Positions 22,501-64,000 of a stretch of 64,000 bases of DNA are shown here, piece after piece. The stretch comes from Psammoneis japonica. Its lineage: Eukaryota. Location of the stretch: NCBI GenBank assembly GCA_008632985.1, contig QPGO01000024.1, forward strand, positions 1 through 64,000. The letters run 5' to 3'. The notes beneath the pieces are model-generated. The model made no database searches, had not been told where the DNA came from, and saw nothing but the letters and a program-made list of their open reading frames with translations. The position numbers and the translations under genes were made by a program. Numbering within the stretch: position 1 is the stretch's first letter; each line of letters opens with the position of its first letter.

Positions 22501-23890
22501 ACCATAAAGAAGGGAGAAGCCACTTTTCTGACAATTTTGCAGTTGCTTGGTCTGGTGAAGCAAGATGCTTTGCATTGCAACATGCCATTGACAGCACTGC
22601 CAAAGCAACCAGCAATGGGCACAATGTGTGTGCTGCAAATGTGCACCAACAGCCTCCACACACCCAAGAGCAGCATTTTAATGTGAAGGTGTGGTGACAG
22701 ATCTGTCATTTTTGTCACAAAAGTCTCTTGAACTTGCCCTTGGAATGCTCCAAAGAAGCAAAAACTGCTGGCTGTCCAGAGCAACTCATTGTCAAACTTG
22801 TCAAAAGCATGGCTTTGCTCCAGTCTGCAACTTTGCACATGAAGGGTGTGTGTGCAGTGCAAAACTCCATTTTTTGTCTTTTGGTGTGCAGGGCGGGGGC
22901 TTCATTGATGGTGGCACTGTGCCACAAAACACAAAAAGTTGCACATTGCAGAGAAAAAGTTGCAGCACTGTTGTCAAGCAACTGGCTGCATGGCATTTTT
23001 CATGCTTTGCAATTTTCCCTCTGAGAAAAGAACTTCAAGTTTGATGTGTCATGCCAGATGCACACAAAAAGCTGCAAAACGTTTCAGAAATCTGAGCTGG
23101 AAAGCACCCCCAACTGACTTTGTGCTTGTTTGCACTCCTCATTTTTGCCAATCACCAGCTGCAAGAAGGTGTTGCTCAAAACAGTCTGCTGGGCATGGCA
23201 GCACATCATGGGCAGGTGAGGCATTCTTCCACCAGCTCAACATGCTGGTGTTCAGCTCCCCGCAATGCATTGCTGGTGACTCTGCAGAAGTTGAAAAGTC
23301 TGGCATCCTTTGAGAATTTTTCTCAATGCTTCGAGCCATCTGCCCCAAGCACAGATGATGATGCACCATGGGCTGGACAACTGCCAAAAAAGTTCTTGTC
23401 ATTCTCCAGGGCACAACACAGAGAAGAACACCAAGCATGAGCTGCTCTGGGGGAGACCTTGGATTCCTGTTGCACATCAGATTGATGGAAAATCCAAGGG
23501 GCAAACCTCAGCAGCCAATGACTTCTCATCAAGGTTGAAGTTGCCACCCCAAAACCACAGCATGGCTTGAGCACATGCAGTGCATGGCAAAGGAGGGAGG
23601 CTGCAATCACGAGTTGCTTGCCAAGGAGGAAGATGCTGTCAAACACTGTTTCTTCCAGCACTTTTTGTTTTTGGTCTTGTGAGTTTGAGTGGCTTGTGCA
23701 TGTCAAGCCCAAAAACAGGACAGATGGACAAGTGGCAAATCGGGCTGTTTTTTTTTTGCTGTGTGCACAACATTTGGTGAAATCAACCTCACTTGCCAAA
23801 GTCAGCAGTTGTCTCTCAATGACATTTGACATCATTGATGACACTGCTGTGATGATCCTCATTGCCTCTCAATGAATTCAGCAGGGCTGT
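16600..23890. mobile_element. Patchwork of heavily mutated transposon remnants (TpA/CpG-depleted)
   Basis: Almost no TA or CG dinucleotides and no credible host ORF. Contains a gag-like fragment, a diverged internal duplication (~18570 vs ~19400) and a possible Copia RT fragment (MNLPLE...IVKLVKSM near 22730-22830). Confidence 0.7.
18880..19400 (-). mobile_element. Ty1/copia-like gag fragment with degenerate CCHC knuckle
   Basis: ETMKKINQCVGKMFGLEMQVL...KEPECP...KTIWGKQCDHHV / KARAFNTIVGNC..AFVTRL / PWKCCKVGHVKWGC resemble the gag of diatom Copia elements once C/H are read back to Y. Confidence 0.5.
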
Positions 23891-23891
23891 C

Positions 23892-24270
23892 TGCAGCGTG
23901 CATTGTCAAGCAGGAAGAAGCACACATGTTCACAACTGCACATTGTTGCACGCATCCATTGCACCACAATCATGGGTGCATGCAAAGGACAGACAAATCA
24001 CACAGATTTGATCAGATGTCAAAAACTGCAAATGCCATCAATCAATGATATTGACACAAAATTTGTCAGTGCTTGTTGCACTGCAATCAGATTTTCTGAA
24101 TGGCCTTTGGAGCAAACGGCACACTTTGGGCCATTGAGAGCTCCTTCAGAGAAATCCAAAATTGCAGCACAAAATCCAATCTCATGGTTTTCTGCTTTTT
24201 GTGATTTGCTCCTCCACTTTCATTTGCACTCATTCTTCAAGCATGGTGCATTGTGTGTGTGCACCACAGA
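23892..24270 (+). repeat. 5' LTR of the gypsy element
   Basis: Aligns by eye with 28582-28990 (shared ttgcaccacaatcatgg, gcaaaggacaga, caatcaatga, gagagctcctt, aaatccaatctca, ttcttcaagca). Confidence 0.85.
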
Positions 24271-27200
24271 AGGCAAAAACACAAAATTGAAGCTTTCACC
24301 TCATGCAACTGATGCCAAGTCTTCTGTCAAGTGAGGGACAATTGTTCTGGTGCCCCTGAAAATGATTTCCAAGCCAAAGTTGCTCAAGTGAACCCAGTGC
24401 CTCAAGATGGAGCAATGTTTTCATCCTGAAGACAAGAAGAGTTGCACCCACACAATCAATGTCAAGCACTGCAACCAGCAGGGAGTCTGCTCCAAGTGTG
24501 TGTCAAATTCTTGAAGACTTGCCGTTGATGCTTGGTTGGCCAGAACATGCAAAAGCAAGCAAACAAGTTCCATCTGATGCAATCAATGTTGAGTGCCACA
24601 ACAAGCAGGGAGTTTTCAAGTGAATCAAATTTTTGAAGACTTGCTGTCAACTTTTGGTTGGACAAAATGTCCAGAAGCAAGCCAACAAGTTCCATCTGAT
24701 GCACATGTTGTTGCAGGGAGATGCTCTCCAAGTTTTTGAGAACAAGGCTGCAAAAACACATTTGCTTCGAAGAGGCAAAGAAGCCTTTGAAAAATGCCTG
24801 TGTTGCCTTTCCAACCATGTTTCCCCCCAAAGAATGCACTTCAAAGTCAGAAACGGCATCTGTGACATGATCTCAAGAAGCCACTGGAGACTGTGAAGAT
24901 CTGCAAAGCTGCCACTTGGACTCAGGAAGGAATGAACAAATGCTCAAAGTTCCACCCTCTTTTTGTGCCAAAGCAAAATCTGGAGGATGAAGATGGTGCT
25001 GTCAGTCAAGCTCACAAGGCTTTAAAATCTTGGATCACACTTTTGACAAGTTGGTTGAGTTCTTGGAGTGTCTGGAAGTTGCTGAGGACACATTTGACTG
25101 GATCAGTGATGTCAAATCTGATCACAACAGCAAGGCTGGGTCAAAGTCAAAGATGGACCTAATTGCGGCTCCAAAAATGGTTGCCAATCTGGTGCCAAAC
25201 ATTCTGATTCTAAGATGTGGTTCAACCATTGCACATGGGCCACTCACAAATGTTGGGTTGATGGAAGACTGGCAAACTGATGCTGAGAGAACTTTGAACA
25301 AAACCCAAAACAGCAATGTTCAAATGGCAATTGCAGGTGGTCTTGCATTGTGGTGCTAAAAATGCCTTTCCAAAGGAAGAGTGGAATGTCATGATCACTC
25401 AGCCAGTCAACAAAATCCTCAAGACAAGTTTCTTGACATGTGACAAAAAGCACAAGGGCAAAAATTCTGACTGTGATGCACTTGGCAAAGAAAACTTCCA
25501 ATTCGAGTGCATGTGATGCACAGTTGTTCTGAAAAATGACCAGCTTCTGTTGAGGAGTCTTGCACATTGCTGGATGTCAGCAAGCCCAGAAAAAGGCCAA
25601 AGCAACTCACACAGGTCCAGCAGTCATTGCTCACATGAACCCCTCTTTGAGAAAAGAGAGGGGTGAGATCCTGCATGTTCTTCTTGATGGTGAAACATCA
25701 TCAACTGCAATTTTGTGCAAATTCACATGGAAATTGAGAACCAAAGAATCCGCCACCAAGATTTGGAAAACCAAGGGTGGACTCTTTGCAACTGACAGCA
25801 AATGCAAAATGCAGTTCTTGTCACCTGAATTTGACAAGCACAAGCACATTGACAAGATGGCACATGCTCATGGCAAGCCCTCTTCTTCATGTTGATGTGA
25901 TGTGATCATGGGACACAACCTGATGAGCAGTCTTGGAATCACACTCAGCTTCACAAATGTGATTGGAAGATGCCACTGCACCAATGAAGAATGTCGGTGC
26001 TTTCTTTGATGCTGATGTCTTCAAGCTGATTGCCAACCACATTGAAGAGTCTGGTGCTGTGAATGGCCTCAATGGCAGGACCAACAGCACCAGGATCCTT
26101 GATGCCAACTGTCATGTTGCCAACCTCAATGATGTGACTGTTGGCCACAGAGACACATCTCACCCCAGGAGAACAGAAGCAACTGAACTCTCTTTTTAAA
26201 AGATTTGAAAAGCTTTTTCACAGTTCCTCAGGTGTGTGGAAAGGAAAACCAGCAGATCTCATGTTCAAATTGGGCATGACTCCACACAATTTGGAGCCAT
26301 TTCCCACACCACAAGCCTTGGAGGCAACTGCTTGAAAGGAAGCAGACCAACTCTATGAGACAGGAGTCTCAAAGAAAAACAATGGACTGCTCTGAATGGG
26401 CAGCTCCAACCTTTGTTCAACCCAGGAAAAATGGTCAAGTTCAGTTCCCACCCAACTTCTAAAGAGCTGAGAGGGAGGCTGGTGTGCACTTCACACACCC
26501 TTTGCCCAATGTTTGGGATGCACTGCAGAAACTGGAAGGTTTCATGCATGTGACCTCATTTGATTTGACCACAAGATGCTGTCACATCAAGCTGACATGG
26601 GGTGCATGTCATTTGTGCATGATGGTGATGCAACGGGGCAAATGTGAATGTTGCGAACTCCTTGTGAGAATTTCCCCCATCATTTTTCAAGAACACATGG
26701 GCAAACTCATGGCAGGTTTAGAGTTTGTCAAAACTTGCTATGTTGATGTCATGCTGTGCCTGACAAAAGGTGACTTCAAAGATCAACTCCAGAAACTTGA
26801 GGAGACATTCACATGGCTCAAACAAACCAGTTTGAAGGTCAGTGCCAAGAAGTCCTTTTCAGCTGAGCATGATGCAGACTGTCCAGGCTTTCATGTCACC
26901 TAAAATGGTGTTGCGCCACCCCCCATGAAAGTGAGGGCAATTCAAGCAGCCCAACTGCAACTCCCAAAACTCACAAGGAGCTGCAATGTTTCATTTGTGT
27001 GGTCAATTGTTGTCAAGACATGTGGCCTCAACAATCTCATGCACTTGCTCTCCTCTTGCCAAACTCACCCAAACAAAGGTTGAGTGGCAATGGATGAGCA
27101 TGAAACAAAAAGCCTTCAACAATGTGAAGTGAGTTGTGTCAAAGGATGTGTCATCATCACACCCAAATTTTGACAAACTCTTTGAGCAGTGTGCCAGGAG

Positions 27201-28581
27201 AGAAAAAAATTCTGAATTGGGAGCAGTCACATCACAAAACAATCAACCTGTTGCTTTCCACAGCTGCAGGTTAAATGGGGTGCAGACATGACACAACACA
27301 ACAGAAAAAACTTCTGCCCATCTTAGAACACTTGAAGGGTTCCACAACTCACTGTTGCCAACAGACAAAAATGTTTGTGGATGACAAAAACCTCACTCAC
27401 AAAAATTTTGCTGTGAACCCAGTCATGCATTGTCATCTGACAATCAAAGAACACAGTCCTAAAATGACCCATCTCAAGGGCACAAGGACAATCTCATTGC
27501 AGATGCAACCAGCTGACTTGCTGTGAAAAACACAGAACCCATGGAAAACCTGAGCAGGGAAGAACCAGATGAGAAGTCACACCAAAATCCTGCAACATTG
27601 TCTTCCATCAATGAAGACACCCTCTTCAAATTGTTGGACAAAACACATCACATGAAGACTTTTCCTGGATGCAAGTGAGATTGAATGCTTGCATGTCACA
27701 AGGACAAAATCACTGGACCAAAGACATTGCAAAAGACAGCAACAGATTGGGGTCATGGTGCACCTTCTGCACCCTGGCACAAACAACGGAGCTGAAAAGA
27801 GGCAATCTCACAACACCTGTGGTGGTCCACCTCACATGAAGACACAAGGAAATGCACATAAAAATGTGAGACATGCAAGCAATTCAAGAAGAAAAAACAT
27901 GCAGACATTTGCCTCCCAAGTGCTCAGAATCAGTGCCACAGAAAAGACCATGTGTGGATCTTGCCAGACCATGCAAAATGCATTGTGAAAGGGCAGAAAG
28001 AATCTGGTGGTCCTCAAATGTTTGACAATGATTGATCCAGCAACAGAACAGTTTGAAACAGCAGAAATCCCAAACAAGGAATCCTTGGCCATTGTTGAAA
28101 GCAGGTGCCTTTGGCCATGGTTGATTGCTTGTGACCATGGAAGTGAGTTCATTGGACACCAATTCAGAGCTGTGGTTGAAGATGACTGTGGCATTGAATG
28201 CAAGCCCACATGCATCCATCAAGTGCTGGGAAACATGCTGTGTGCATGTGATTTACAAAACGCACCCCCAGATGTAGAGGATCCACTCTCTCATGTCATG
28301 CCACAGTGCAAGCTGCACCGTGCCAATTGGTCTTCAACGGAGACATGACATTTGTCATCCAACATGTTGCTGACTGGAAATTTGTCCAGAGACAAAAACA
28401 GGAGATGACAAATGAAAACAGCACTTGAGAAAATGCTCAATGCACTCAATGCCTGCAGGGCAGGAGAAAAGACATTGCTCAAGAAAGACTCTCAAAAGTT
28501 GTGACAGCCCTGTGCTGGGCCTGTCTGTCAAATGGTGCCATTTAAGGACAAGTGGCTCTAACGTGCAATTGGGGAAGCAAA

Positions 28582-28990
28582 TTCAGCACACATTGTTGAG
28601 CAGGAAATGACACACACACATTCACAATTGTGTGTTGTTGGCACGTCAATTGCACCACAATCATGGATGCGTGCAAAGGACAGATCAATCAATCAGATTT
28701 GATCAGCCAGATGTTGAAAACCAGCTCTTGCAAATGAGGTCAATCAATGATGTTGACACACGAGGCATCAATGCTCACCACATTTGGGCAATCTGCCATC
28801 ACAACTGGATTCTCTGAACTGCCTTCAGCTGCAGAGACAGCACACAAATGCTTTGGGCCACTGAGAGCTCCTTTGGAGAAACCTGAAATTGCAGTGTGAA
28901 AAATCCAATCTCACAATTTTTCATTCTTGGCATTTGTTCTGCTTGCTTCATTTGCACCCATTTTTCTTCAAGCACAGTGCATGTCCATCC
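28582..28990 (+). repeat. 3' LTR of the gypsy element, preceded by a purine-rich tract
   Basis: Direct repeat of 23892-24270; ggggaagcaaa at 28571-28581 sits at the polypurine-tract position. Confidence 0.85.
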
Positions 28991-30132
28991 TGTGCCCAGT
29001 GCAATCTGTGGCACAGAGCTGTGAAGCAAGTGCTCTCACATGTGCACCCATGTGATCAACTCACTCTGCTGCTGCTGCTGCTGCTGCAAATTTTGCCACC
29101 TCGCCAGCCCACAAGGACACAACTCACAAAAAATGAGGTCAACACAAAGCACAAAAGCAAAAGAGACAGTCAAACTGATCCTCAGAACTCTGTCCAATGA
29201 AGTGGCACCTGAGTTTTGGGGTGCAGTGCCAAGCATCAAACTCTTGTCAACAGCCCCTCAATGTCGTTTGTGACATGGCCAAGCTTCACCTGATCTGGCT
29301 GAGCACTGCAATTGACGTGGATGCAAGTTCTCCATCTGACACGCTCTTCAGTGCTGCAAGAAGGGTTTGGCCCAGTCGTTTTCCAAAACATGGGTGATGC
29401 CAGTGACAAGCTCAGTGGCTTGTTGGCAACCCAGAATGTGGCAGTCCATGGAGTGCAGCCATTGACCAACTCAAGTCAAAAGACAGTGATCATGGAAACA
29501 TCTCAGCCCAAAGCTGGCTGGAAGGGAGTGTGGGTGGCTTCATTGGCACCAGAGTGATGAGTGACGTGACAGGAAGGGCAACAACCCTTGCAGCCCCCCC
29601 CCAGTGAGAAGGCAGTGCTGGTCTGTCCTCGTGCAAATGCCAGATTTGGTCAAGCTTGACAGCATCCATGCACATTTTGAGACTCAATGCCAACTTCCCA
29701 TGATGCTGGGATGTCCTTTGTGGACGTTGGACCGGGGCGCAGATGCGACTAAAATCACTCGCGCAAATTACAAATTGAAGCGCGTAGGAGAGCATGGAAA
29801 AGCTGAGACCTGATGATGCGGTCAGCGCCGCACTTTCAACTTGGGGTCATTGTGATTGTAACTCTCTGGAAAATGAATGAGCTCCATGGCTTGGTGGTTT
29901 TCTCAGCGTCGCTTGTACAGCAACTTAACTCTGAGCAGGGGCGCTTGCCATCAAACCACGTCGGAGTTCGTCGAGTGCGAGCTAGCAATCAAGTCGTCTG
30001 GAACGCATTTCGATCTGGTGGGAATTTGCCTCACACATCATTGATGAAACACCACAGGAGAGCGGCGCTAACTCTCCTTCGATACCCCCAGTTACCTTCA
30101 AGGTTATAGACAGTAGCGGAGTAGAACGTCGA

Positions 30133-49649: not shown

Positions 49650-50449
49650 GTCTATCGAATCATATCATAGAATGAAATGACGAGGAATATCAAGTGGCTT
49701 TGTGCACGACGTTTTAGATACAAACATAATACACAGTAGGATGAGTAACTAGTTGTATAGAAGTAATATCCAACCAAGCAAACAGATTAACCGGGATGTC
49801 CTAGAGTGCCCTTTTGCCGGGTACCGCCAGCTGGGCGTGGGCACAAGCCGTTTCACAAGGGTCTCGGTGCGAAGTGTTGGAGGCTTTTTAAGAAGGAGTT
49901 TTCACTCTGATCTATTCTAAGTAATGGAATGTGAGTGGTAGATAGGCTAGATACACGAAATGAGAGAGAATACAGCAGGCAACCGCTTGCTTTCCGTCCC
50001 AGCTCCGTGATACGGTAGATACCACGTGTAAAAATTAACCCCCCGTTTTAAACCAAATACCCACCTCGATCGTCTAATAGTATCCAGATACAAAGTTCTG
50101 CGCACTTTTGGGGGCCTAGAAGGGGGTGAACGTTTGTTACGAACCAATCACTGCAAATTGAATCTCGCACTTGCCCGTGTAATAAAGGTGATCCACGAAA
50201 AGTTAGTTCAATTTTGAAATACCAGATACCATGAGCAATACATACCTGTTACATTCGCGCAAGACATCGGTTTAAAGAGTATGAGACCGCTAATGCTCAT
50301 ATCTTGTGTATTTTGTGCTCTGGCAGGGGTCAAAGTCTAGCAGCTAATTCTACCGGCAAGAAAAATGTTGAGTCGAATGGATCATGCGGGATTCAAGACA
50401 CGTGACTCGCTGTACGATGAAGTGTTGCCGTCGCCCTGATTCATTCTAC

Positions 50450-52690
50450 TTGGGACTCTTTCGTCCAAGAAGAAGGCTTTGCTCAAGGTTGCCCTCTTGG
50501 CCCCATCTTCGCCAGCCTTGTCCTCTTGCTTGTCCTTCATCTGTCAATCAAGAACTCCGTGAACGCATCCCCGGCCGCTCTCCTGCTTCCGTCGGCTCCT
50601 GCGTTGATGGTGCCCACGCTTTCTTCCCTCACTCTGTTCTCCCATGGTTCTTCGAACGTTTCTCCACTCTTGGCACCCCCTGCGGCATCACCCTCCTCAA
50701 CCTCTGTAAAACTAAGATTCTCACATCCATCACTGGTGTCAGTCCCATTTCCCACCCTTCCTCCTTCCCGGGCGGATCCTCTCCGCGCCGCTCTCTCCCA
50801 TCTCAGCAACCCTGCGAATGATCCTTCCTGCACCTCGGAACTCACCTCCGGTGTCTGCTTCCTTGGTCAACCCCTGGGCTCCCAAGACTTTGCTGACTCC
50901 TTCCTCTCTGCCACCTCTTCCACCCTCTCCAACAAAGTCGGCATGCTTCTCACCCGCCTCCATGACAAGCAAGCTCAAGCACAGCTCTTCAAACACTGTT
51001 TCGCTCCTTCCTCCACTCACCTGCTTGGCACTGACTTCCACCACAACCTCAACCCTGACAACCCTCCTGATCCCTTCCTTGGGACCTCCTCCTTCCAAGA
51101 CTCTCTTGTCACCACCACTCATCGATTTCTCCACTGCGCTGCCTCCCATGCCGCTCCTCTTCCCGGCCATTCTCTTGCCATTGCCTTCCTTCCTGCTTCG
51201 CTCGGAAGCTTTGGCCTTCAAGACCCAACAGCTGCCGCTGTTCCATCATTTATGGTCTCTCTTCTTTGCTCCTTCTGTTTTGCATTCCATGGTGTCCAGC
51301 TGCCATCAGGTGTCGCCGTCGCTCTTCCTCGCAGCTTTCGGCTTTCTTTGTCTTCTTGGCACAATCCCCACTCGATGCTGTGTCTCTGCCTGATCTTTTG
51401 CTGCTGCGCTCCTGTTCTTGCCTCTGCTTCCACTCTTTCTGCCTCCTCTCTGACCACTCTGGTTAAGTCGGCTGCCCTTCCTGGCCTGGCCCACGATCTC
51501 CATCATGACCATCAACAGCAAGTCATCACTTCTGCTCTTGTCAATGCTCCCTCCAACAATCAAGTCTCCCCACCCTCACTGCTGTCTCCACTTGCTGGCC
51601 TTCCTCTTCATCCCCATTTCCATTGCTTCAAGAGTTCCTGCCTTGCTTCTGATGCCTGCATCATTGCCACTCAGCACAAGCTCTGTCTTCCCATCCTTCC
51701 CTCCTCTCTTGTCAACACACCCTGTCCCTGTGGCCATGCCACCCTTGATGTGCCTGTGGTGATCACGCCTTCTCCTGCAGTTGTGCTCACAAATCCAAGC
51801 TTTCCAATGGCCTCCAAGACACCCTCTTCATTGTCGCCCAGACCTTGGGACCCCCCGCCCAGCTCTGTCATTCTTCCAATGACGTGCACCTCAATCCCAC
51901 AAATCTGCTCCCTGCCTGTGCCCACTCCACCCTGCCAATGTCAGCATTTCCATCCTGCCTCCCGCCTCTCTCTCTCTCTCTCTCAGCTCCTTCCCACCAT
52001 CACTGTGTTGCAGTTGATGCAGCCATGCCCCAAGATCCCTCTTGCTCTCCTCCTGGTCTGCCTGCCCCCTCTTCCCCCACATTGACTGAGGCACACTGTT
52101 CAAGCCCGAGATTGAAGTTTCTTGGCCCTTCCGCTCCCTCCACTGATGAACCTCCAGTTGTTGCTTCTTTCAATGCCAATGGCATCTTTCTCCTCCCTTT
52201 TGCCATTGATCACCTTGGCGTTCTTGGATTCTTCACTCACCGGCTCCTTTTTGGCTCCACATTTTCCTCCGTCTGCTCTCAACCCAAGCCTCCCTGGTCC
52301 TCTTCACCCAACCTTCACCACTCAAATGTTCCTGCTCTGCCTTCCTCTGTGCCCTGTCATCTCCATCTTCCCTTCTCCCATCTGCTGACTTTGCCAGGTG
52401 CGGCCTGCCCACCAAGTGCCTCGGCAGCACATGTTGCACCGCCTCTCCTTCTCAATGGGCTGTCCACACCCTCAGATGCAACATTGTTCTCCACCTCTCC
52501 ATGCATGCTCTCTGCTTTGCCTCCTCTCTCCCTGCCCCCTCCTCTCCCATTCCCTCTGCCAAACACCCCACGTCCTGCATTTTGCACCCACTTCACACTC
52601 TGCCATCACTGCAGCTGCTTCCATGCCTCCTTCTGCTGTTCCTTTCCACTCTGCACAGGCTCTTTAACTCTGCATGCCAGTGTAAATTGA
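50450..52690 (+). mobile_element. 5'-truncated non-LTR retrotransposon of the RLE (CRE/R2-like) type, degenerate
   Basis: FVQEEGFAQGCPLGPIF (RT QGxPL), SCVDG (YxDD site), KTKIL, GVCFLGQPLGSQDF, LPASLGSFGLQD, CPCG..LD..GDH.F.C knuckle, and FLLPFAIDHLGVLG (restriction-like endonuclease end). Confidence 0.85.
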
Positions 52691-53929
52691 CCTGTTCTCA
52701 ACACCAAGATTGGATGATGATGGCATCATCACAAACCGATTCCATGGCAGCAATGCCCCACTTTCTGGTTTGTCTTTGAGACCTCGTGACAGCTGTGTTT
52801 GACCTCTTCATGACATGAACAGGCTGAGCAATCCATGAATGCTCATTTACAAGCCGCACTCTTCTATTTTCAGATTTGACATTTGTGTCTTTGCGGTCAA
52901 TCTAGAGCACATGCAGGCCAGGGAGGAGCCAAATTCACTGACATTTGTTGCTCTGTAGAATGACATCATCAGAACAATTTTGTCAATGTTGTTTGACTCT
53001 GCTTTTTCCTTAAACCACACACCAACTTCATTCTTCATTTTCACTCTCATCCACCCAACTTTGTCCAACTCAGGAGCACTTGGCTGAGTGCATTGCAGTC
53101 GCTTTGTTCTTCAAAAACATTTGTCTGTTCAACGCCATTGATCAAACAGGTTTGATGATGTGATGATGATGTTGGATTTGTCAATGTGCTCATGCTGGGA
53201 AAGACAACAAAAGAGCTGACTGCAGCAGTGGCAAGAAAGTTCAGTCAGACAGCAAGCAACACGTTCCAGATGCAGGTGGGAATCCGTGTGACATTGCTGG
53301 GCCCGCAGAATTCTGCATGCAAGCTCTGCAGCAAAATTGTCAGGTGATTAACATGTCAATGATTGCCAACAGAAAATGAGGCAATTTTGCGAATGCACAA
53401 ACTCGTCCATGATTGAAGCACATCATTTTTTACTTGGCCAGGTGCACTCTTCAGACATTGAAGAATGTGCCTGGTGCATTGATGTTCCCATGATTTTGCC
53501 AAATAAAACATCTGGGGCTTTGCAAAACAGCAAGTCTAGAACATTTTTTTTGGAAGATCACACATGGAAATGCACACGCGAAACATGCAACAGATGACAA
53601 AAAACAATTGTGTCACACATCAGCACTGCAAGCTCCCACCCAGCATCAGAGCGGGGAGCAATTCACCCGGGGGCCGCCTTTGATTTTTATTGTGGGTTTT
53701 GGGTTCATTGCATTTGGGGCTCAGCCACATTGCAATGAATGAAGCAACACCCATGTGCTCAATTTTTAATTTGGTTCCTTCATTGATGCTGTGGGTCAAT
53801 CACAGACAATTCTGCTGCTGTTTCATTTTTCATTCGCCCTCCCCCAATGCATCAGTGCTCCTTGCTGTTCATTTTTAATGCACCCATTCTTTTGATTCCA
53901 CTTGTTTTCAATTCGCCAATGTGTTGCGC

Positions 53930-56100
53930 CAAACATTTAAACTGCTGCCTGTTGTGGTGCGTCCGCCACCCACAAATCCATGTCTTTGATGTTCTCCTCT
54001 TCATTGTCTCCTGCTTCCAACTGTTTGCTGTCATTGTCTTGGGTCTCTTCTGTCCTGTCCATGCACTCCCAGAACTTTCTCAACCAAACTTTGTTGCACT
54101 CATCAGCATGTTTGCTCAATCTCTTTTTGTCAATTGCACTTCCCAGTTTTTTGCATCTGTCCAGTCCCTTCTTGTTCCAACCCTGTTGACCCTTTTGCAC
54201 TTGACTTGTTTGATTGCCGTGCTTCTTGCTGCCTTTGCTGCACTTTGCCTCCGGAATGCGCCCCGCCTTCTTTTCCACCTTCAACTCCTCCTTTGTTTTG
54301 TTGTCATGCATGTGCACCCACTTGCTTGTCCCAATTGTTCTCTGACACCAGCAGGCCAAACGCTTCATTGCTCGCAGATGCCANGAGGCGGGCATGCATG
54401 AAGGCTGCAACGGCCAAACCAATGCTAGTCACTCTAGAACAGCAATGGAGACTTGTTACCCCAATGAAATAAAATCTACTTTCCCATGATAAATGGCAAA
54501 GCTAGTTCTTCCTATTGGCGTAAACTCTCTAGCTGGCCCACTGTACTTTTGAGGCTTGGTTCGCTGTTTGTGCACGGTGCACTGGCTTTCACCCTCAAAA
54601 TTTATTGTATTGGCTGACAATGCAGGCAAATGAGTCACATATTTCTAGTTTGTAAACTACCTTATAGAATAAAGAAACAATCCACCCCTTCATAATTGCC
54701 ATGGTGCGTTTCTCTGTCGAATAAAACTCCGCATCACCTTCTGGATGCACGTCAAATGCGCGGCAAAATTGCTCGACGACAAATCTGAGCTGTTAAGAGC
54801 TTGAACATCTTCAGACACCACAGACCCAAGCTTCTTTATTTATCATGAAGTCATCCTGATGCTGCACCTGTGACTTGGACTTGTCGTCAGACTGCCGTGG
54901 CCGTTGCAAGGTAGAAGTGACATTCAAAGCAAGCATTTCTCTCTCAGGGATGGCTCATGGCAAGGGAGACCCTACAGAACAAAACAACAATGAGGAAAGA
55001 CAACATGTGTGTAAGTTGAAAGAATTTGAACGTATAAGTGCTCAACGAAATGCACAGCATGAATGGTGATGCATAAGTTGCGTGTTGATGCAACAAAAGC
55101 GGCGGTGTCAACACCAATCTTCAGNNNNNNNNNNNNNNNNNNNNNNNNNNNNNNNNNNNNNNNNNNNNNNNNNNNNNNNNNNNNNNNNNNNNNNNNNNNN
55201 NNNNNNNNNNNNNNNNNNNNNNNNNNNNNNNNNNNNNNNNNNNNNNNNNNNNNNNNNNNNNNNNNNNNNNNNNNNNNNNNNNNNNNNNNNNNNNNNNNNN
55301 NNNNNNNNNNNNNNNNNNNNNNNNNNNNNNNNNNNNNNNNNNNNNNNNNNNNNNNNNNNNNNNNNNNNNNNNNNNNNNNNNNNNNNNNNNNNNNNNNNNN
55401 NNNNNNNNNNNNNNNNNNNNNNNNNNNNNNNNNNNNNNNNNNNNNNNNNNNNNNNNNNNNNNNNNNNNNNNNNNNNNNNNNNNNNNNNNNNNNNNNNNNN
55501 NNNNNNNNNATTGTTCTCTGCACCAGCAGGCCAAACGCTTCATTGCTCGCAGATGCCAACCTGTTCAAGCAACATCTTGATTTGAGCCAATGCTTCCACA
55601 TTCTCTTTCCCACCACCATTGGCAGGAAGTGAAGGATGAAGTGGCTGTGGGCATCCATGTCATCTCTCACCTTTAGCATGTTGTCCAGTGAAGGCATCTC
55701 TGCACTTGCATCCACTTGTGTGTTTCTCTTGTTGTGATCAATGTGCCCTGTTCACTCATGCAACACAAAGCAACAATGTGTGAGTGTCGCTGCATTGTCC
55801 CACAACCTCTGCCATCCATTTTGATGCAGTGCTTGTGGAAGAACTCTTTCTTAAGTTCCCCACACATGTTGTTCCTCTTTCTTGTTGTCTGCCTTTGCAC
55901 CTTGTCCTTTGACAAATTCTAGAATTGAGCTCTTTTTTCTTGGGGCACGTTGATTTGGTGAGCACAATGTCAGCCACTCTGCCATCGCAATTTTTTGTGG
56001 CCTTTTTGTTCAGGAACTTGCATTGTCTGAACAATGCATTCTTGCAGAAGTTGTCCAAAACAATCTTGTCCCTGTTGTCAATTTGTTCATTGCGTTGCTT
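53930..56100 (-). pseudogene. Degenerate accessory ORF of a large DNA transposon, split by an insert and an assembly gap
   Basis: LFRQCKFL...RKRNN..., FLPMVVGKRMWK...ASASNEAFGLLV, then EAKCS...QGWNKKGLDRCKKL. This resembles the SDEAF.LL...KYT...GW...G..RY..L pattern I associate with ORFs accompanying Plavaka-like elements. Confidence 0.5.
55125..55509. other. Assembly gap (N run)
   Basis: Run of N bases. Confidence 1.
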
Positions 56101-57649
56101 CTTCCTTCTTTTCTGCTGGTCATGTCATCTTCTGTGCCGGATGAGGTCACAGTCCCACCTGTCACAACTGATCCACCTCCTCCTGTTTGCATCACAGTTC
56201 TCACCGGCACATCCTCCTGTGTTGCGGCCAACCCATCCTGTCCCTGTTCCCACTGCAACAAGCAACAATTTTGGTGAGTCATCTTCAATCACCACTTGTG
56301 TTGCTCCGACATCTCTTGCCTCATTTCTCTGCGGGCTTTGGAATGGTGCACTCGCTTCCCTTGGGCTTGGCATGGCGGAGCATGCATTTTGACCAGTTTG
56401 CAAAAAAGTGACATTGTTCACATGCCGCATTGCAAATCATCCAGCACTGGGCCCCACGACGGTCCACTGATGCACCTGCCACTTGTGTGCATGTTGCCAT
56501 GCATTCCTGTGTCTGCTTTCTCTGTTCAAAAATCTGGCACGGATTCTCATTGGTCAGATTCATCTAAATGTTTTGCAGGTTCACAGGAAAGCATGTGTGA
56601 TGCATGTGGTTTGTGCGATGATGCACTCGAACAACTCCCAGCATCTGTCCCCCACCTCACCATGGTGTGTTCGTGCTGGTCCCTGCCAAAAAACATGAAC
56701 TCTGTTTTCAACAGACATCACATTCCCAATTTGCTCTCCACCCCAGAGCCAATGTCCACACATGCACAGCAAATGCACAAACACACAACAACGTCTCCTG
56801 TCAGATCCTGTTTGCCATTCTGGGCTGGCCTGGTTTGCAATGGGATCAACGACCATGAGCTCCAGGCGCCCTTCAAGCCATTCCCATGTGCCTCATTCCA
56901 ATCGGGGGATGGGTTGCCTGCAACACCAATGCACCCACTCTCTCACAGTTTTGACATGTGACCAGTCTCCCTCTTTGCATCCTGGCCTCACTTGCAACAT
57001 TTTGGCACTTTGTCCCCAATTCTTCCTGGTTGAATTGTCTGTCACATGCACCGGGGTGAGAAAGGATGCAATCGTTGTCCCCTCCCCAAATGAGATGCAC
57101 CAAGTTGTCTCACTCCTTCCCCCGTTTTGTGCAGTCATCAACCACATGTTCTCCATCTTTGTGTGTTGAGAACATCCTTGTCAATGGCAGGCAGGCTGGA
57201 TGGATTGTTTTTGCACTGGCAGCTCCTGCATCCTCATGTCACAAATTGCTGATGGTGAGTGGGAATGTGCCTTGTTGCTTCCACATGCCTGCACAGGTCT
57301 GCAAGTGTCTCCATGCTGCTGCCAACATGAATGGTTTCTTCTTTGCCCACAAGATTCATCAGCACAAATTTCAGTGCCCGTTCACACACCATTGTCCTGT
57401 CTCTTTCTTTGCTGCATTGACAAGATGTTGTCAAGTTTTGTGTTTGCATGTCCTGCCGGCATCTGCTGCATGTCAAAGAATGGTTGGGAATTTCCGCTGA
57501 CACATGTGATTCCCCACTCATGACTTGGATCTTCAATTCACTGATGTGGATGATGGAGCCCACACAAATCCATTGCCTCTCACCCGGATTCTGCCACCTT
57601 GACCACAATGACATCCACACCTTCAATGATGGCCTGGTAAATTCTCACC

Positions 57650-60500
57650 ATGCCATTGCAACAACAAGGAGGGTTCTGCTGCCCCAACCTTTTTTGCATC
57701 AAACTGCCTGGTGTTGCACTCCCCTCACAGATTGCTCTAAGGTGTCACCTCAGTCACTTCAATGCTGCAACCAATGAGTCCAGTGTGGCTTTGGAAGCAT
57801 CCTCTTTGCCTCCACCAGTGAGGCATGTTGGGCAAGACGCAGCCTCAGATGGTGGCAGCGCAGCAGACTCAATTGCACAACAGGAAACCCTTCCAGGCGA
57901 CAACTCCTTCATGGACATTGACGAGGGGGACGCAGACGCATTTCTCATCATCTGGCAGATTCATGATGTTGAGGATGGAGAACTCCTTTCTTCTCATCCC
58001 ATGGAACCTGCTTTGTCCCCTCACCAGCTGGAGCTGTGTTGTTCTACAAGGATTGCCTCCAACCAAAGAATCCCAGACAAACTGCTTGTTCACTGGAATC
58101 CAGTGGAGGAAGCGCCACTGGGTCCAAGCGGGATGTCGTCTGTTTCTTCTGAAGAGGACCCCAACACAGACTCTAAAAACACCTTGCGGCACATTGTGTG
58201 TCTCGATCCACCCTCAGATGATGAAGACAAGGATGACAACCAACCAAGAAGAGGTCCCTTGGTCCCCCCCGGCTGGAATTCACAAGCAAATGTTGTCACC
58301 AGACTTGTCATCTGAACCCAGGTGCAGCACGTTGACACCAGCATTGCACTCCAAGAATGAGAAGCATTTGTTGGAACAGCTGCGCATTTGCAACAACATG
58401 CGTGCTCCTAAAAAACATTTCCAAGACATGATGGGTTGAGCACGCAATGCCCTGGATGACCAATTTGATTTCACGTGCTGCTCGGGTGACAAAGACAAGT
58501 TTGTCAATCAATTGCAGGAAACATTTGGCCTTCCTCCACCCACCACAGTTCACATCGTGCAAGAACATGTGGGAGGAACCCTGCTTCATCTTCACTTGGT
58601 TGATGCAGTTGTTTGGGATGCGGCATCACAGACACAGTGTCTGTTGACCAACCAAGAGTTGATGTCACCCAAAAACATCGCTTGCAACAACATGCAAAAC
58701 CCGTGCCAACTGCACAATGCCAGCGATCACACCATGAAGCTGCAGGATGGATTTGTGTTCCAGGAAGCACAGATTCGTCTGTGCCACCATCACAAAGAGG
58801 ACTCAGTCATCAGTGTTTTGTTGCACACAGACAAGACATGGGTGACACAAAATGGGAGATTCGCTTGCAAGCCTGTGGTTGGCACGTTGTCTTGCCTCAC
58901 ACTTGCAGCTGGGAACCAACCCAAAGCATGGTTTGCACTTGGTCACATGACTTTGATTGGGCTGTCATCATCGGAAGTCACCCAGTTGGGCTGCACTCAT
59001 GCAAAGGCCCTTGCCGGTGTGCAGTGCAGGAACTGCCACACACAATTGGAGACAACACGCAGAAGTCTCTGTGCCACCCATCAACAACTGGGCCCAACTG
59101 ATGCAAATGCTGCTGTGTTTCCATGCCAGGACAAAGAGGAAAGATGGTTTCTGGAATGCCAACAATGTGATGTGCAGGGAAACTTGAGAGGAAAAGGCAT
59201 CAGAGTCAATTGCCACAATGACAAAAGGCACTCTTGAAATGGCCCCTTGAATGAAAATTGGCAAAAAAGTGGCAAGTTGAAGCTGAAGGGCAATGGATGG
59301 GACCTCCAAAAAATTGAACGCATCGAGCACTTGCCCCAGAAACACATCCAGGTGTGGATTGCTGGATGGATGCAGAGCTGATCAGATGGAAAGCAGCCAC
59401 AAGCACTTTGCAAAGGACCCGGTGTTGCAAGCCCAGAAGCGTCACTCCTCTTTTGCAATGCAGACAGCAAAGAACCTGCAAGGAAAGATGCACGCCATGA
59501 CTGCAAGGTCTGCTTTCAGTCTCGACACAAATGACTCCAAGCCTGAAACCAAGGAGCACAAGGAGAAATGCCACCAAGTTGCAAATGGTGTTTCAGGGTC
59601 CCGTGCAGGAATTGTCAGTGGAATTTTGCATGGACATGACAGAGCGTGCCAAGACCTGGGCACATGAAACCCAGGAATGGTTCTTGAAAACAAAGGGAAT
59701 GGAGCTGCCTCTGTTGGCAACAAAATGTTTGTGCCACACTGCAAGGAGGCATTGCCCAACTGCCACTCATGTGATTGGGTCCACAGAAGTGCACATGGAT
59801 GGTGTTGGGAGAGTCAGGGCTCACCCAAAATGCCACTCCAGGAAACCAGTTTGTGACTGGGTAAAAATTGCTCAGAAATGTCAAGGGAGGGAGAGTCTTG
59901 TTTTGGGGATGGCAGTGTGCTTTTTGATTTGCATGGAAAATGAAGAACTTGATGATCCGCTGGCCTTGGTGCGCCGATGCAGCCGCCATCTACAGAGAGA
60001 CACCAACCAATTCAAGTCAACCACTTTGGAGCAACACATGAAATCTCACTCATCCATTGGCGAGCCATTGTTTGATCTTGTTGCGGTCTCCTCGATGCAA
60101 CAAAAGGTGCCAGTGTTTGAAGACAACCCCTCACTGAAAGAAGAAGAACCAAGATGGGACGTGAAAACCCAAGCACAAATGGGAGTTGACATCTGCAAGA
60201 TGCACAAAATGAAAAGGGAGGCAACCGATGGCTGCGATGGTTCCCATCACATGGTTTGCACCAATCTGCGCAAAGTTCAGGATGAGGGGAGTTGTCACTG
60301 ACACAACTGTTTGTCACTCTCCCATTTTGGCTCCATGTGAACGTCCGGCTTGGTTGGCATCATGGCTGGCAAAAAGGACATCACACATGCAAAAACACTC
60401 ATCATTCCAAACATTGTGTGGAGGTTGCAGCATCTGGCGATGCCAAGCATGCTGTGAAGGCGGAAGACTCCTGTTCTTGTCCCGGATTTTCCTGTTGATT
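57650..60500 (+). mobile_element. Degenerate Plavaka-like (CACTA-related) transposase
   Basis: ISVLLHTDKTWVTQNGRFACKPVVGTLSCLTLAAGNQPKAWFALGHM corresponds to the Plavaka I.Y.DKT....G....EP...TL.......N...AW..LGY motif; C-terminal GRVRAHPKCHSRKPVCDWVKI corresponds to RAHP.Y....WYDWV. Confidence 0.72.
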
Positions 60501-63500
60501 TTTTGGATGATGACTGCGACCAAAATCCAGTGCAAAAATCACCCAGATGACAGGGATTCAAATGGCAACCCTGTTGCAACACAGCAGTGCACGCAGCCAC
60601 GAAACAGTGTGGCTGTGAAAATGCAACTCCCCAGGCACAGAAAAGGGAAACGGCAGCAAGGAAGGACAGGGAGTGCATCTGAGCTGACTCATCGACAATG
60701 TTGATGGACAACAGCAAATGACCAAATGGAATCAAGGTTGCACTTCATCTTTAGAATGTCAAAGCTGGGGATGCAATCATCAATCAACACACTGCTTCTT
60801 GTGTGTTCCAAGCCAACAGATTTGCAGGACTCTGGCAATGAGCTGCAAACAGACCAGACCTTGTCAACACAGGGTGAATGAATGGTTTTGAACAAAAATC
60901 AAAACGCCGTCGATTTGACCAAGATCAAGAAGATGCGGGTTGAATTCAAACCACGTGATCGCTTGCCCGATGCACATCATCACCTGAATGACCTTTGTTC
61001 TGACATGATGCCTGCTCCTGAAGATCTTCTGGACGGATTTGCTCCTCAAGGCCTCAAGAGTGACGCAGCCAGTGTCCTTCGTCATGAGATTGTTCACAAT
61101 CTTGTCATCCCTAAAGCTGCTCTGACCAAGATCTTGCACGAATCGGGCCGATCATTGAAAAGGCTCCTCTCCATGTGGCCACCCCTCAAGGATCCCCAGT
61201 TCGTCTGAGCCTCAGTGGTCTTCAGGACGCTGTGACCAAAGCAATCACAGAGAACGACAATGCCATGAAGGTGCGTGTTGGCACTTCATGTTTCCATTTC
61301 TGTCCTGGTTTCCAGCATTGTGATTGCTGGGATGACACCTCAGATGACCCGCATCCAATCCCACCGTCTGCTTCAAGTTCTGCATCCCCACCGGTTCCTG
61401 CTTCAGGTCCCACTCCTGAAGACTTTGCCAAGGCCTTAGCAACTCATTTGCCTGGTCCAAACGAGCATGGGCAAGCTGTGACTTCTGGGTTGAAGAGCAT
61501 TTCGAGTTCTCATGCATGTGCTGAGTCCAAGTTGTGCCCAGATCCCGCCTCTGCTGCCAGTGGCTGCAACACTGCTGTTGCATCTCGTGTTGAAGATGCA
61601 CTCACTGCACATGCTCGGATGGATCCTGCAGATGCCAATTCCTTGACTGTCAAGTCTGCTGTGTCTGTTGTGGAATCTGCGGGTGAGCAATCTACAGACA
61701 TTGATGCGGGATCCCTTGCAATCCCTGCCGAATCGGCGGTGCTTCCTGCCAAAGTCCGCTCTTGCCTGCTCGAGACCCCAAAGTTTTTTGTTTCTGGCCA
61801 CTCCATTGTTCCACACAAAGATGGCCACACTCACCCCAGTTGTGGACTGTCCTCCATTGTCAAGGTTGCACCCAAGTTGCTTGCCACCTGTGCGCCGCTG
61901 TCGTCTGTTGCTCATGGACGCCGCCAGTGCTTTGTTGGTTGTCAAGTTGATTCGAGTTCGGATTTTTGGTTCGGCCGTGGTCAACTTTGGACATGCGATG
62001 CTGCCATTCCTTCTCTCATCCGATCAAGACCAACGGAAGCGGGGTGACCCTGAAAGAGGGCCACCGAGTCTCGTCACCTCCCGCCATTTCATCTCTTTCC
62101 TCTGTTGTCAGGACCGTTGTCGCGTCTGTTTGTGCTTTTCACGGTGCTCCGGACCCATCCACCATTGCCGATGATGATCCCACATTTTTTGATCAGGGGA
62201 GGGATCACTGCAGCGCAGAGGAAACATGTCAGGCCATTGAGAACTCAATCTTCCGCCAAGACACCTTGCTTGACGATCACTTTTTGAACGCTGTGCGATG
62301 CTCACCTCCAATGCATCACTGTTCTTCCAACGTTGAGCAGCTTTATGATGCACCCCCATTTCTCCAACATGTTTTTCAAGGGCGACACAAAGTGTGGCAG
62401 AAGCACAGGTTTTGCCAGGTGGGATGCCATTGCTTCATTTTCAACGCATCACTCGCCATGGTGGATTTCCAATTTTTGGCCCCATCTCTTCCGATGATTT
62501 TTGGCGACAGGATGACTTGCCAGAATGTCCCGTTGCGGTTGATTGTTTGTGGATTGACAAAATTGTCCTTTGGTGCACGACTCAATTTGTCCAAAAGACT
62601 CATTGGGAACTGCCTTTGATGTTTTTTGTCGAAGACCGATGCACTGACTGTGGGTTGGATGCTTCATTCCCGCTGCGCCCGCCGTTTGATGGGACACTGC
62701 CGTTGATTGTTGTCGGGTTTGTGGATCCAGTCTTGGTGTGTTTTCTCTTGTTTGTTTTGTTCTTTGCCATTCTGGTCCTCTCTTTTTATTCGGATCGTCT
62801 CTTTCTTTCTTGTTGAGCATTGCATTGCTCATCAGGGGAGGATGACAGACATCCAAGATGGGGAGCGCACTCCCTTGTGTCGGACAGACTGGCACAGACA
62901 GCATGGAGAGATCCGATCATCTCTCTCTGCTCACTTTCTTTCTCATCTAGCACACGATTGTCATCTGTCCCAGATGTCCGTTAGATTGTCCCGACACCGC
63001 CAGTCCGCAAGCATTGCACAAAAAATTGGTGCATCAGATGAAAAGAGAAGAGGGAACTTGTTTGGGGACTCCATGTGGAGAACACAAAGGAGGGAAGCCC
63101 TCTGGGGAACATTGGGTGAATGTGTCTGCTTTGAGGGGACAAAGGCAAATTTAGTCAGGTGGACGTCAATTGAAATTGTCTGGGGTTCCGGGGTCATGCG
63201 GGCCGTGCTGGAATCATGAGGGGTGTGTGTGAAAACAATGAAAGCTGGCTAAATTAAATGAGCTTGACACCTCATTTGAGGAACCAAAACCCTGTGGAAC
63301 AATTTGACCCCCTCATTGAACCCGCCTCTGATGAGGGCTGGAACGCATCAAGCGGTGCTGAGCCGCAGAGATGCGTTGACAGCGCCACTTTGATTTTGAG
63401 TTTTCTTTCCTTTTTACAGCACAAACTCAGACTTCAACACAGCGGGTGTTGAAAATCTGGCAAATGGTGAGTTGATGCATCATCTGCACAACATGGCACC

Positions 63501-63720
63501 ATCACACGAACGGGTGCAATGGCGCGGCGTGTCAGCACAAAACTCGGCTCGCTGCCGTTCGCTGACAGCCCCTTTGCAGCCCCAAATGAAAGGTGGCACA
63601 ATCAGCCTGCTCTTGCAACGGGACTCGAAACAACGAATGTTTAGACACCTTGTCTGCCGCGTCAATGTCTTCGTCGGCTCCGTCGGTTTTTTTGACCAGT
63701 TTGGCGTGTACGTGCGTGTG
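60500..63720. mobile_element. TpA-depleted repeat DNA with degenerate ORFs; probably the rest of the same large DNA transposon
   Basis: Protein-like but broken frames at 60882-62047 (+) with no Tyr; TpA nearly absent while CpG is largely retained. Confidence 0.5.
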
Positions 63721-64000
63721 CCGGTGTGCGTGTTGTCACCGCGGTGATGGTCTGTACGCTCATCCGGAGCGCGCCCGCCCGCATTTGCTTGAGTTAAAAT
63801 AATTTTAACTCAGAGCCAAAATTTATAAATCAGAGCCAATCAAAACGCTCAGATTCTCCGTTCAAGAGTTCTTGCGATATTTTTATTTAAAGGAAGAATT
63901 CTCCGATCTATCGACCGCTTACTTGTTGGGAGGCCCACTGATGGCTGAAGGTGAAGGTGCCATGGTGACCATGGTGTCAAACCCCACCGCCCGCCGCTCA

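Follow-up and report, generated by a model that had tools for sequence, protein, structure and literature searches.

Uncoupled loss of TpA and CpG in TA-poor blocks of a 64-kb stretch of a Psammoneis japonica contig

TA-poor blocks and the features of the window

The window, meaning the whole analysed stretch of 64,000 nucleotides (contig QPGO01000024.1, positions 1 to 64,000), contains genic DNA and a series of TA-poor blocks (Table 1). The genic background has a TpA o/e of ~0.58-0.604, CpG o/e of 1.016, CA+TG o/e of 1.123 and a GC content of 0.478. Over the blocks TpA o/e ranges from 0.03 to 0.12 and CA+TG o/e from 1.46 to 1.90, with GC unchanged or raised; CpG loss is confined to this affected DNA, where o/e is 0.08-0.60. 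All 40 of the 40 longest TA-free gaps of the window are inside the TA-poor domains, which have sharp edges at ~16660, 29750, 50450 and 63750 and spare the neighbouring genes. The left margin of the old core (block A), for example, starts ~220 nt past the end of an Hsp70-like ORF. These sharp edges beside genic DNA with a TpA o/e of ~0.58, together with the multi-copy state of block D, point to a restriction to repeat DNA. No Rfam family was found anywhere in the 64-kb window, and an ESM Atlas query with one host protein gave no usable match.

Table 1. TA-poor blocks and associated features of the window (o/e, observed over expected)
Feature	Position	Strand	Properties
Block F, small TA-erased block	4200..5099	.	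TpA o/e 0.068, CpG o/e 0.205
Young tandem triple, ~175-nt units, ~95% alike, partly converted	5119..5654	+	self-comparison
Block G, left margin of block A	16660..17099	.	TpA o/e 0.119, CpG o/e 0.51
Block A, old core, both dinucleotides lost	17100..29699	.	TpA o/e 0.047, CpG o/e 0.081, CA+TG o/e 1.87, GC 0.464
Block E, TA-erased left margin, + strand C-rich	50450..51599	.	TpA o/e 0.08, CpG o/e 0.54, GC 0.557
Block B, TA-erased	51600..54299	.	TpA o/e 0.089, CpG o/e 0.263
Block C, single-copy TA-erased relic	55600..60879	.	TpA o/e 0.035, CpG o/e 0.275
Block D, TA-erased, CpG-retaining copy of a multi-copy element	60880..63599	+	TpA o/e 0.068, CpG o/e 0.604, GC 0.508
Four overlapping open frames	60882-61205, 61115-62044, 61951-62616, 62349-62813	+	ORF list
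Right margin of TA-poor domain	63600..63750	.	TA only at 63642 and 63709; CpG at or above genic level

Block D has a change point in CpG density at 60900, with 17.1 CpG per kb to the left and 37.3 per kb to the right. Its summed contig depth is 1219-3999 compared with ~57-60 for single-copy DNA, i.e. 20-70x, counting contigs at least 88% alike; 1104 of the 2590 read contigs match at 90-95% identity. The read contigs come from the one sequencing run listed as containing this stretch, probably of the assembly's own sample, no RNA run being listed, and the differences from the assembly described here are the 40 listed out of 493 rows. The four open frames of 60882..62813 can together be read as one putative frameshifted coding region of ~640 aa. 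Other read copies of the block have indels (+A at 61127, -1 at 62410, +G at 62734) that fall at two of the three frame-switch places and at a third place downstream. Tyrosine is depleted in the frames, 2 of 795 residues as opposed to 90 of 4343 in host ORFs (p 5.5e-5), while cysteine (4.7%) and histidine (4.3%) are jointly enriched (p 1.3e-5). Searches with Pfam found no family in ORFs of at least 90 aa or in six read-through frames of 50300-63999. Frame 60882-61205 had no homologue among longer proteins, and frame 61951-62616 had none among 1.84 billion representatives. Self-comparison of the window showed no second copy of 60.9-63.7 kb, and neither terminal inverted repeats nor long terminal repeats were found around the block. 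On the right, the bin 63600-63899 has a CpG o/e of 1.49 and TA density is normal again after 63755.

The other blocks differ in copy number. Block C has a depth of 57-121 over 56007-60675 and is covered by single contigs of 1059, 2287 and 508 nt. Block E is also single-copy, one contig at depth 62 covering 50397-51952; its CpG o/e drops inward from 0.83 to 0.46 and to ~0.2 by 51.9 kb, a gradient over 50.4-51.9 kb that looks positional. The piece of block B at 52.7-54.0 kb has a very high depth of 7000-22000. The label of "LINE 5' part", given by the earlier note to 50461-50940, found no backing from Pfam, which detected no family in six frames of 50300-55080 at E<=0.01. Block A contains an internal repeat pair (23901-24251 and 28591-28982) with 72.7% identity over 370 aligned columns, 27 transversions (7.3%) and 19 CA<->TG doublets.

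Dinucleotide counts, site rules and base-change balance

The earlier note had claimed, from manual counts, that TA is scarce where many CG are kept, and that the 17-29 kb core has lost both. The counts for 60901-61260 were exact, TA = 1 (o/e 0.046) and CG = 16 (o/e 0.71), and the same holds for 50461-50940, with TA = 2 (o/e 0.10) and CG = 22 (o/e 0.675) on a strand that is indeed A-poor (71 A in 480 bases). The edge at 16640-16900 has TA = 2 (o/e 0.13) and CG = 13 (o/e 0.745), and the core at 17000-29000 has TA = 42 (o/e 0.048) and CG = 49 (o/e 0.077). Against the genic TpA level, the Poisson P of the TA scarcity is 2.5e-5, 5e-4 and 6e-3 for the three CG-keeping stretches. The whole span 60880-63720 has 13 TA (o/e 0.077) instead of the 102 that the genic level predicts (P 1.4e-28), and 118 CG (o/e 0.643).

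Division of the window into 300-bp bins (n=211) gave 78 bins low in both TA and CG, 10 TA-low/CG-high, 120 normal and 3 TA-normal/CG-low. A one-to-one tracking of TpA and CpG depletion, composition-corrected, was not found: the two o/e values are uncorrelated over the 88 TA-low bins (Spearman rho 0.10, p 0.33). CpG strongly separates the blocks (D vs A p 2.6e-35, D vs C p 6.4e-8, C vs A p 7e-13), and TpA does not (p 0.25, 0.12 and 0.45 for the same pairs).

The surviving TA sites show a strong flank bias. YTAR makes up 53 of the 88 survivors in the blocks vs 251 of 1461 background sites (p 5e-18), and RTAY 1 of 88 vs 460 of 1461 (p 5e-13). Survival by context is alike in every block, ~0 for RTAY, 0.04-0.16 for mixed contexts and 0.16-0.42 for YTAR. 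Surviving CG sites have no such bias, YCGR accounting for 75 of 338 in the blocks and 478 of 2067 in the background (p 0.73).

On the assumption that every block started with the TA and CG content of the genic background, the summed loss of TA and CG is balanced by the gain of CA+TG in all seven blocks. Losses and gains are 1136 vs 1176 in A, 198 vs 200 in B, 429 vs 449 in C and 159 vs 136 in D. In all blocks more CA+TG is gained than TA is lost; since the excess in block D (136) is greater than its TA loss (87), some CpG decay must have occurred there. GC rises and then falls, as expected, from a background of 0.478 to 0.508 in D and 0.557 in E, and to 0.464 in A, and GC and CpG o/e are correlated across the TA-low bins (rho 0.51, p 4e-7). 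A change of TpA to TpG/CpA is indicated by the balance of the blocks, by a TA/TG/CA site in the tandem triple, by the tyrosine scarcity of block D and by the CA<->TG doublets of block A, the evidence for block D being indirect. Double conversion of TA to CG, which could mimic CpG retention, found no support; only the 150-bp right margin tops the genic CpG level, and the triple is without TA/CG alternation.

The tandem triple and block C show sites at which copies or reads differ. The triple has one site that reads CA, TG and TA across its copies and another that reads CCA, CCA and CTA, and its CpG is intact (15/15); the TpA-vs-CpG contrast (3/15 vs 0/15, p 0.22) is drawn from few sites and is not significant alone. 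Where assembly and read contigs disagree in block C, 10 of the 17 listed cases are of the CG<->CA/TG type, and CpG-type differences occur at 10 of 78 CpG sites vs 1 of 247 sites in contigs of genic DNA (p 3.5e-6). Over 3857 bp of the block, which now has 6 TA, there are 3 TA<->CA/TG differences, a weak hint of a high de novo rate at TpA. Five of the CG<->CA/TG differences have CA/TG in the assembly and CG in the contig, and assembly errors at methylated CpG are a possible cause.

Order of the two losses and its explanation

The analysis supports the earlier note's proposal that TpA loss does not arise as a side effect of CpG decay. The base changes are opposite (A:T>G:C vs C:G>T:A), the flank rules are different and so are the footprints, that of TpA loss reaching ~16660, 50450 and 63750, where CpG o/e is still 0.5-1.5. 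The further proposal that TpA is lost earlier is supported by the 10 TA-low/CG-high bins and by the absence of true CG-low/TA-normal repeat DNA; two of the three bins so classified are AT-rich intergenic DNA with 6-11 CG expected and the third lies across a block edge. Almost all TA is lost and most CG kept in the block D repeat, and therefore TA erasure is separate from CG decay and ahead of it.

The best explanation, to which we give a probability of about 0.6, is that two separate mutational processes have acted on silenced repeat DNA of a diatom-like genome, a fast TpA erasure and a slower CpG decay. The first would be a targeted, enzyme-like A:T>G:C hypermutation at TpA, with TpG as the product on one strand and CpA opposite it. 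It would favour TA with a 3' pyrimidine on each strand, with RTAY wiped out and YTAR partly spared, respect sharp domain edges and reach its floor quickly; adenine deamination of DNA, or an equivalent, is the likely mechanism. The second would be a slower CpG>TpG/CpA decay without flank preference that is still under way, presumably by spontaneous deamination of 5-methylcytosine in CG-methylated transposon DNA, with 5mC predicted at these CpGs. In diatoms, CG methylation is reported to fall mainly on transposons (PMC9998398). The stretch at 60.9-63.6 kb would then be a relatively recent copy of a multi-copy element in which the first process is saturated, with ~87 TA lost and Tyr codons turned into Cys and His codons, and which has undergone only ~40% of the second. 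Older blocks would be further along the same path, the single-copy neighbour having a CpG o/e of 0.28 and the 17-29.7 kb core 0.08.

Alternatively, CpG may have been retained because CG methylation is weak or absent, at the margin of a silent domain beside active genes or by escape of this element from methylation, and not because the DNA is young; the footprint of the TA mutator would then be wider than that of methylation. The CpG-retaining TA-poor stretches are all at margins (G at 16.66-17.1 kb, E at 50.45-51.6 kb, and D with 63.6-63.75 kb), the single-copy block E has a smooth inward CpG gradient (0.83, 0.54, 0.46, 0.46, 0.22), and 63600-63750 is TA-poor with CpG at least at the genic level. 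However, the CpG profile of block D is flat at 0.4-0.76 with a sharp step at 60900, within ~180 bp of the last listed single-copy contig end (60719) and the onset of multi-copy depth. The margins at 29.4-29.7 kb and 4.2 kb are CpG-poor up to the edge, and the CA+TG excess of block D over its TA loss also argues against full CpG retention, which makes this account rather unlikely. Less likely again is that block D inherited its TA-poor state from a converted master copy, or is duplicated converted DNA, in which case it would not bear on what came first after insertion. Copies at least 88% alike are indeed numerous, but a functional ancestor almost without tyrosine is improbable, and many of the read contigs (1104 of 2590) are only 90-95% alike, as expected if each copy was converted on its own. 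The tandem triple and the 19 doublets of the block A pair show such independent conversion directly.

A single machinery, e.g. a deaminase that converts A in TpA and, at lower efficiency, C in CpG, would couple the two losses at different rates. Both changes are limited to the same domains and both end as CA/TG. In Bigelowiella natans GC>AT change is up ~10x inside the hypermutable region (3.9e-9 vs 3.44e-10), and the discussion of the same preprint mentions ADAT-type enzymes with both activities (10.64898/2026.01.13.699255). The flank rules, strong for TA and absent for CG, are wholly unlike, and at the margins the two losses do not share a footprint. The data reject a fixed rate ratio, and CpG-type differences go on in block C, where TA is exhausted; a common machinery thus appears highly improbable. 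A compositional quirk or chance, the element being TA-poor and CG-moderate by origin, has a negligible probability given the Poisson P for 60880-63720, the CA+TG excess that balances the losses, the replacement of Tyr by Cys/His, the context bias of the TA survivors and the location of the longest TA-free gaps.

The earlier proposal that the two indices form a two-stage clock of element age stands in its TA-first order and falls as a clock, TpA survival being the same whatever the CpG level. A constant-rate joint clock is rejected because TpA survival is at the same context-set floor in every block. With rates fitted on block A, block D should have 12.3, 31.3 and 15.0 surviving sites, and 0, 4 and 7 were observed (P 4e-6, 1e-9 and 0.018). 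The TpA stage is hence either saturated or front-loaded and does not resolve time here. TpA status is a switch rather than a clock, and CpG o/e is the only graded index, although age and methylation level are inseparable from sequence alone. Proxies of age appear to rank with CpG (D multi-copy, C single-copy, the A pair with 7.3% transversions), on three blocks and as indirect proxies. Block B has high depth with a CpG o/e of 0.26 and block E is single-copy with 0.54, so copy number is no general predictor of CpG. Tentatively, TpA erasure might be a dose-limited, front-loaded event, tied to a RIP-like stage of the life cycle or to first silencing, with a footprint independent of CG methylation and a TA-pyrimidine rule. 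If the front-loaded reading were true, each repeat would carry a binary stamp of mutator passage and a separate CpG timer starting at or after that passage. Both marks, followed genome-wide, would date transposon invasions in diatoms and show the time and place of the mutator.

Comparison with known systems

In RIP, known from Neurospora and other ascomycetes, CpA is changed to TpA by C:G>T:A transitions and GC is lowered. The process described here resembles RIP in being a transition hypermutation of repeated or foreign DNA only, in its sharp domains, in the destruction of coding capacity and in a possible spill-over into flanks. Unlike RIP, it removes TpA and raises GC. RIP proper was rejected as a candidate, TpA o/e of 0.03-0.12 and CA+TG o/e of 1.46-1.90 with unchanged or raised GC being the reverse direction. 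In vertebrates, CpG decay by 5-methylcytosine deamination in methylated transposons serves as an index of repeat age. The CpG stage resembles such decay: it turns CpG into TpG/CpA, is limited to transposon DNA, follows apparent age in a graded way, has no flank preference and is still polymorphic. It differs from plain 5mC decay in being superimposed on an earlier, faster TpA erasure, and methylation is presumed here.

The closest parallel is Bigelowiella natans, in which A:T>G:C change occurs only at TpA at 6.85e-7 per site per generation, compared with 3.9e-9 for GC>AT in the same region, and the reported targets are integrated giant-virus and virophage DNA (Mettrop et al., bioRxiv 10.64898/2026.01.13.699255). 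Both systems change TpA only to TpG/CpA, affect foreign or repeat DNA and leave clustered windows depleted in TpA and enriched in CpA+TpG. The TpA change is much faster than GC>AT in the same DNA of B. natans; in P. japonica TpA loss is likewise ahead, an order read from present-day bases. Unlike the chlorarachniophyte B. natans, the host here is a diatom-like stramenopile and the targets are transposon-type repeats with their margins. The depletion is also far deeper, with o/e of 0.03-0.09 vs the Rho of 0.45 given for the B. natans NCLDV region. The accessible text of the preprint contains no occurrence of CpG and no treatment of flank context or saturation.

Targeted A:T>G:C hypermutation at TpA has thus been described once so far, in a 2026 preprint on an unrelated alga, and a full-text literature search found no report of it from a diatom. 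Its separation from CpG decay, and its precedence, narrow the search for the enzyme to a TA-pyrimidine-specific, 5mC-independent activity. TpA erasure feeds the same CA/TG pool, and therefore an excess of CA/TG alone is not readable as CpG decay; used alone, either this excess or CpG o/e misreads such genomes. TpA can serve to tell targeted from untargeted DNA, and CpG, where methylation is known, possibly to measure time. TA erasure also explains why protein-domain detection misses most transposon relics here. In block A a weak match to RVT_1 is present at 26463-26900 (E 3.9e-6), below the curated cut-off.

Uncoupled loss of TpA and CpG

TpA is at or below an observed/expected ratio (o/e) of ~0.1 throughout four domains of the window (~4.2-5.1, 16.66-29.75, 50.45-54.4 and 55.6-63.75 kb, at 300-bp resolution). 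The genic background, the gene-bearing DNA of the same window, has values of 0.604 for TpA, 1.016 for CpG and 1.123 for CA+TG. CpG, unlike TpA, is block-structured inside the TA-poor domains, and the TA-erased stretches named blocks A to G differ in CpG (p 6e-8 to 3e-35) but not in TpA (p 0.12-0.45).

Dinucleotide content of the TA-erased blocks, of the recounted intervals and of other features of the window
Feature	Position	TA count	TpA o/e	CG count	CpG o/e
Block A	17.1-29.7 kb		0.047		0.081
Block B	51.6-54.3 kb		0.089		0.263
Block C	55.6-60.9 kb		0.035		0.275
Block D	60.88-63.6 kb		0.068		0.604
Block E	50.45-51.6 kb		0.08		0.541
Block F	4.2-5.1 kb		0.068		0.205
Block G	16.66-17.1 kb		0.119		0.51
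Interval	16640-16900	2	0.13	13	0.745
Interval	17000-29000	42	0.048	49	0.077
Interval	50461-50940	2	0.10	22	0.675
Interval	60880-63720	13	0.077	118	0.643
Interval	60901-61260	1	0.046	16	0.71
RING-H2 zinc-finger remnant (zf-rbx1)	21883-22308 (+)
Direct repeat pair	23901-24251 / 28591-28982
Reverse-transcriptase remnant (RVT_1)	26463-26900
AT-rich array	34008-34530
Raised-depth stretch	45335-46668		~0.62		~1.3
Abundant repeat piece	52672-54005				0.15-0.41
Island	54385-55124		~0.57

Every TA and CG count in the earlier note was exact on recount; under a Poisson model at the genic level, the chance of so few TAs ranges from 6e-3 to 1.4e-28. Its label of "LINE" for 50.46-50.94 kb is unsupported. 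Both dinucleotides are lost in 78 of the 211 bins of 300 bp and TA alone in 10; 120 bins are normal. CG is low and TA normal in the remaining three, of which one is an edge bin and two are AT-rich and intergenic. TpA and CpG o/e show no correlation across the 88 TA-low bins (rho 0.10, p 0.33). The two losses therefore do not track each other one-to-one, as the refuting condition of the earlier note would require, and the uncoupling that it claimed is real.

Both losses feed CA/TG. The gained CA+TG matches the sum of lost TA and lost CG in each block, ancestral composition being assumed (lost/gained in the seven blocks, 1136/1176, 198/200, 429/449, 159/136, 61/41, 75/87 and 27/27). GC content rises from 0.478 in the background to 0.51-0.56 in blocks D and E and stands at 0.464 in block A, and CpG o/e correlates with GC within the TA-low bins (rho 0.51). 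This pattern is as predicted by a path in which TA is lost first and CG later.

The site rules of the two processes differ. YTAR accounts for 53 of the 88 surviving TAs against 17% in the background (p 5e-18), and RTAY for one against 31.5% (p 5e-13), so TA with a pyrimidine after it, on whichever strand, is the preferred target. Surviving CGs have no such flank bias (YCGR 22.2% versus 23.1% in the background, RCGY 24.6% versus 22.4%). In addition the chemistry is opposite, A:T>G:C for TpA loss and C:G>T:A for CpG decay. Thus, in agreement with the earlier note, TpA loss does not arise as a by-product of CpG decay.

Order and tempo of the two losses

Age proxies rank with CpG across blocks D, C and A. 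Block D (CpG 0.60) has many similar copies, block C (0.28) has none, and block A (0.08) contains an internal LTR-like pair with 7.3% transversions and 19 CA<->TG doublets. Comparison of the assembly with read contigs, from a run that is probably the assembly's own sample, gave 18 differences in block C. The 17 listed are ten CG<->CA/TG, three TA<->CA/TG and four other. CpG sites differ at 10/78 in single-copy block C versus 1/247 in genic contigs (p 3.5e-6); thus CpG decay goes on after TA exhaustion. The young tandem triple of ~175-nt units at 5119..5654 (+) kept CpG at 15/15 while its TA sites are split among TA, TG and CA, an anecdotal case (p 0.22).

The earlier note also proposed that the two indices form a two-stage clock of element age. 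Context for context, TpA survives equally in all blocks. With the rates fitted to block A, 12.3, 31.3 and 15.0 sites would be expected to survive in block D, where 0, 4 and 7 are observed. This rejects a constant-rate joint TpA/CpG clock; the erasure of TpA is front-loaded or else is at a context-set equilibrium. Copy number does not account for CpG by itself. Block E retains CpG, in a gradient running inward, although it is single-copy, and block B is low in CpG despite a piece of very high depth, so position or methylation level must also matter.

TpA-restricted hypermutation has been described in Bigelowiella natans (2026 preprint), the only such description found in a literature search. 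CpG is not mentioned in that preprint. Literature searches that paired diatoms with TpA, hypermutation and dinucleotides gave no relevant report; it is established that diatom transposons carry CG methylation (PMC9998398). The window adds four points: TpA saturation as an argument against a clock based on TpA, flank rules that differ between the two processes, ongoing CpG-type differences, and a CpG step linked to the boundary of a multi-copy element.

The block D element and its genic setting

The CpG change point lies at 60900. Read depth, summed for one run over contigs at least 88% alike (single-copy level ~57-60), rises from 57-121 in the stretch 56.0-60.7 kb to 1219-3999 in 60.7-63.3 kb, which makes block D a multi-copy element and block C a relic present once. 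On the plus strand of block D, four frames that overlap are readable as one coding region of ~640 aa. Single-base indels occur in other copies at two of the three frame-switch places (61127 and 62410) and at 62734. Tyr makes up 2/795 residues of these frames versus 2.1% in host ORFs, and Cys 4.7% versus 1.7%, which is how the change of TA to TG or CA shows in coding sequence. Searches with 60.9-63.6 kb gave no Pfam family, no homologue and no terminal repeat.

The window is gene-dense eukaryotic DNA. Its host ORFs encode Hsp70, DUF547, cap guanine-N2 methyltransferase, tRNA-intron endonuclease and UBA domains. For the DUF547 protein, 122 relatives were found at E<=1e-10 (best identity 47%); among the 120 matches listed, those with an organism in the source name are only from diatoms (Odontella, Seminavis, Nitzschia, Bacillariaceae sp., Fistulifera in two rows, Pseudo-nitzschia and Cylindrotheca) or their sister group (Triparma).

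Other features of the window

The direct repeat pair in block A is 72.7% identical and surrounds the weak RVT_1 remnant (E 3.9e-6, below the curated cut-off); together these are probably an old LTR retroelement. The 19 doublets show that the two repeats were converted independently. The zf-rbx1 remnant (E 1.4e-5, below the curated cut-off), within the same old TA- and CG-erased block, may be a dead gene fragment.

Assembly-versus-contig differences are ~8x denser in TA-erased, single-copy 56227-60719 (17/3857 bp) than in genic contigs (44001-49583; 2/3527 bp; p 9e-4), and are either allelic or assembly errors at modified bases. The repeat piece at 52672-54005 is very abundant and TA-erased, with a summed contig depth of 7000-22000 versus ~57 for single-copy DNA and a 3-base deletion variant at 53295 (depth ~44,700 of 66,000).

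The island, of normal TA density within a TA-erased domain, has a depth of 1818 and is bounded by an N at 54384 and an N gap at 55125-55509. Since 55510-55558 is a repeat of 54334-54383 (98% identity) and read contigs run straight from 54342 to 55527, it is either an insert introduced by scaffolding or a multi-copy element, unconverted, whose insertion is haplotype-specific. The raised-depth stretch (598-1136), with normal TpA and high CpG, is either a repeated sequence escaping conversion or a short abundant piece; neither a tandem repeat nor an RNA family was found in it. The intergenic AT-rich array (GC ~0.29) is built of repeats, both tandem and inverted, that are 74-86% alike, and is not TA-erased; TA is normal and CG nearly absent.
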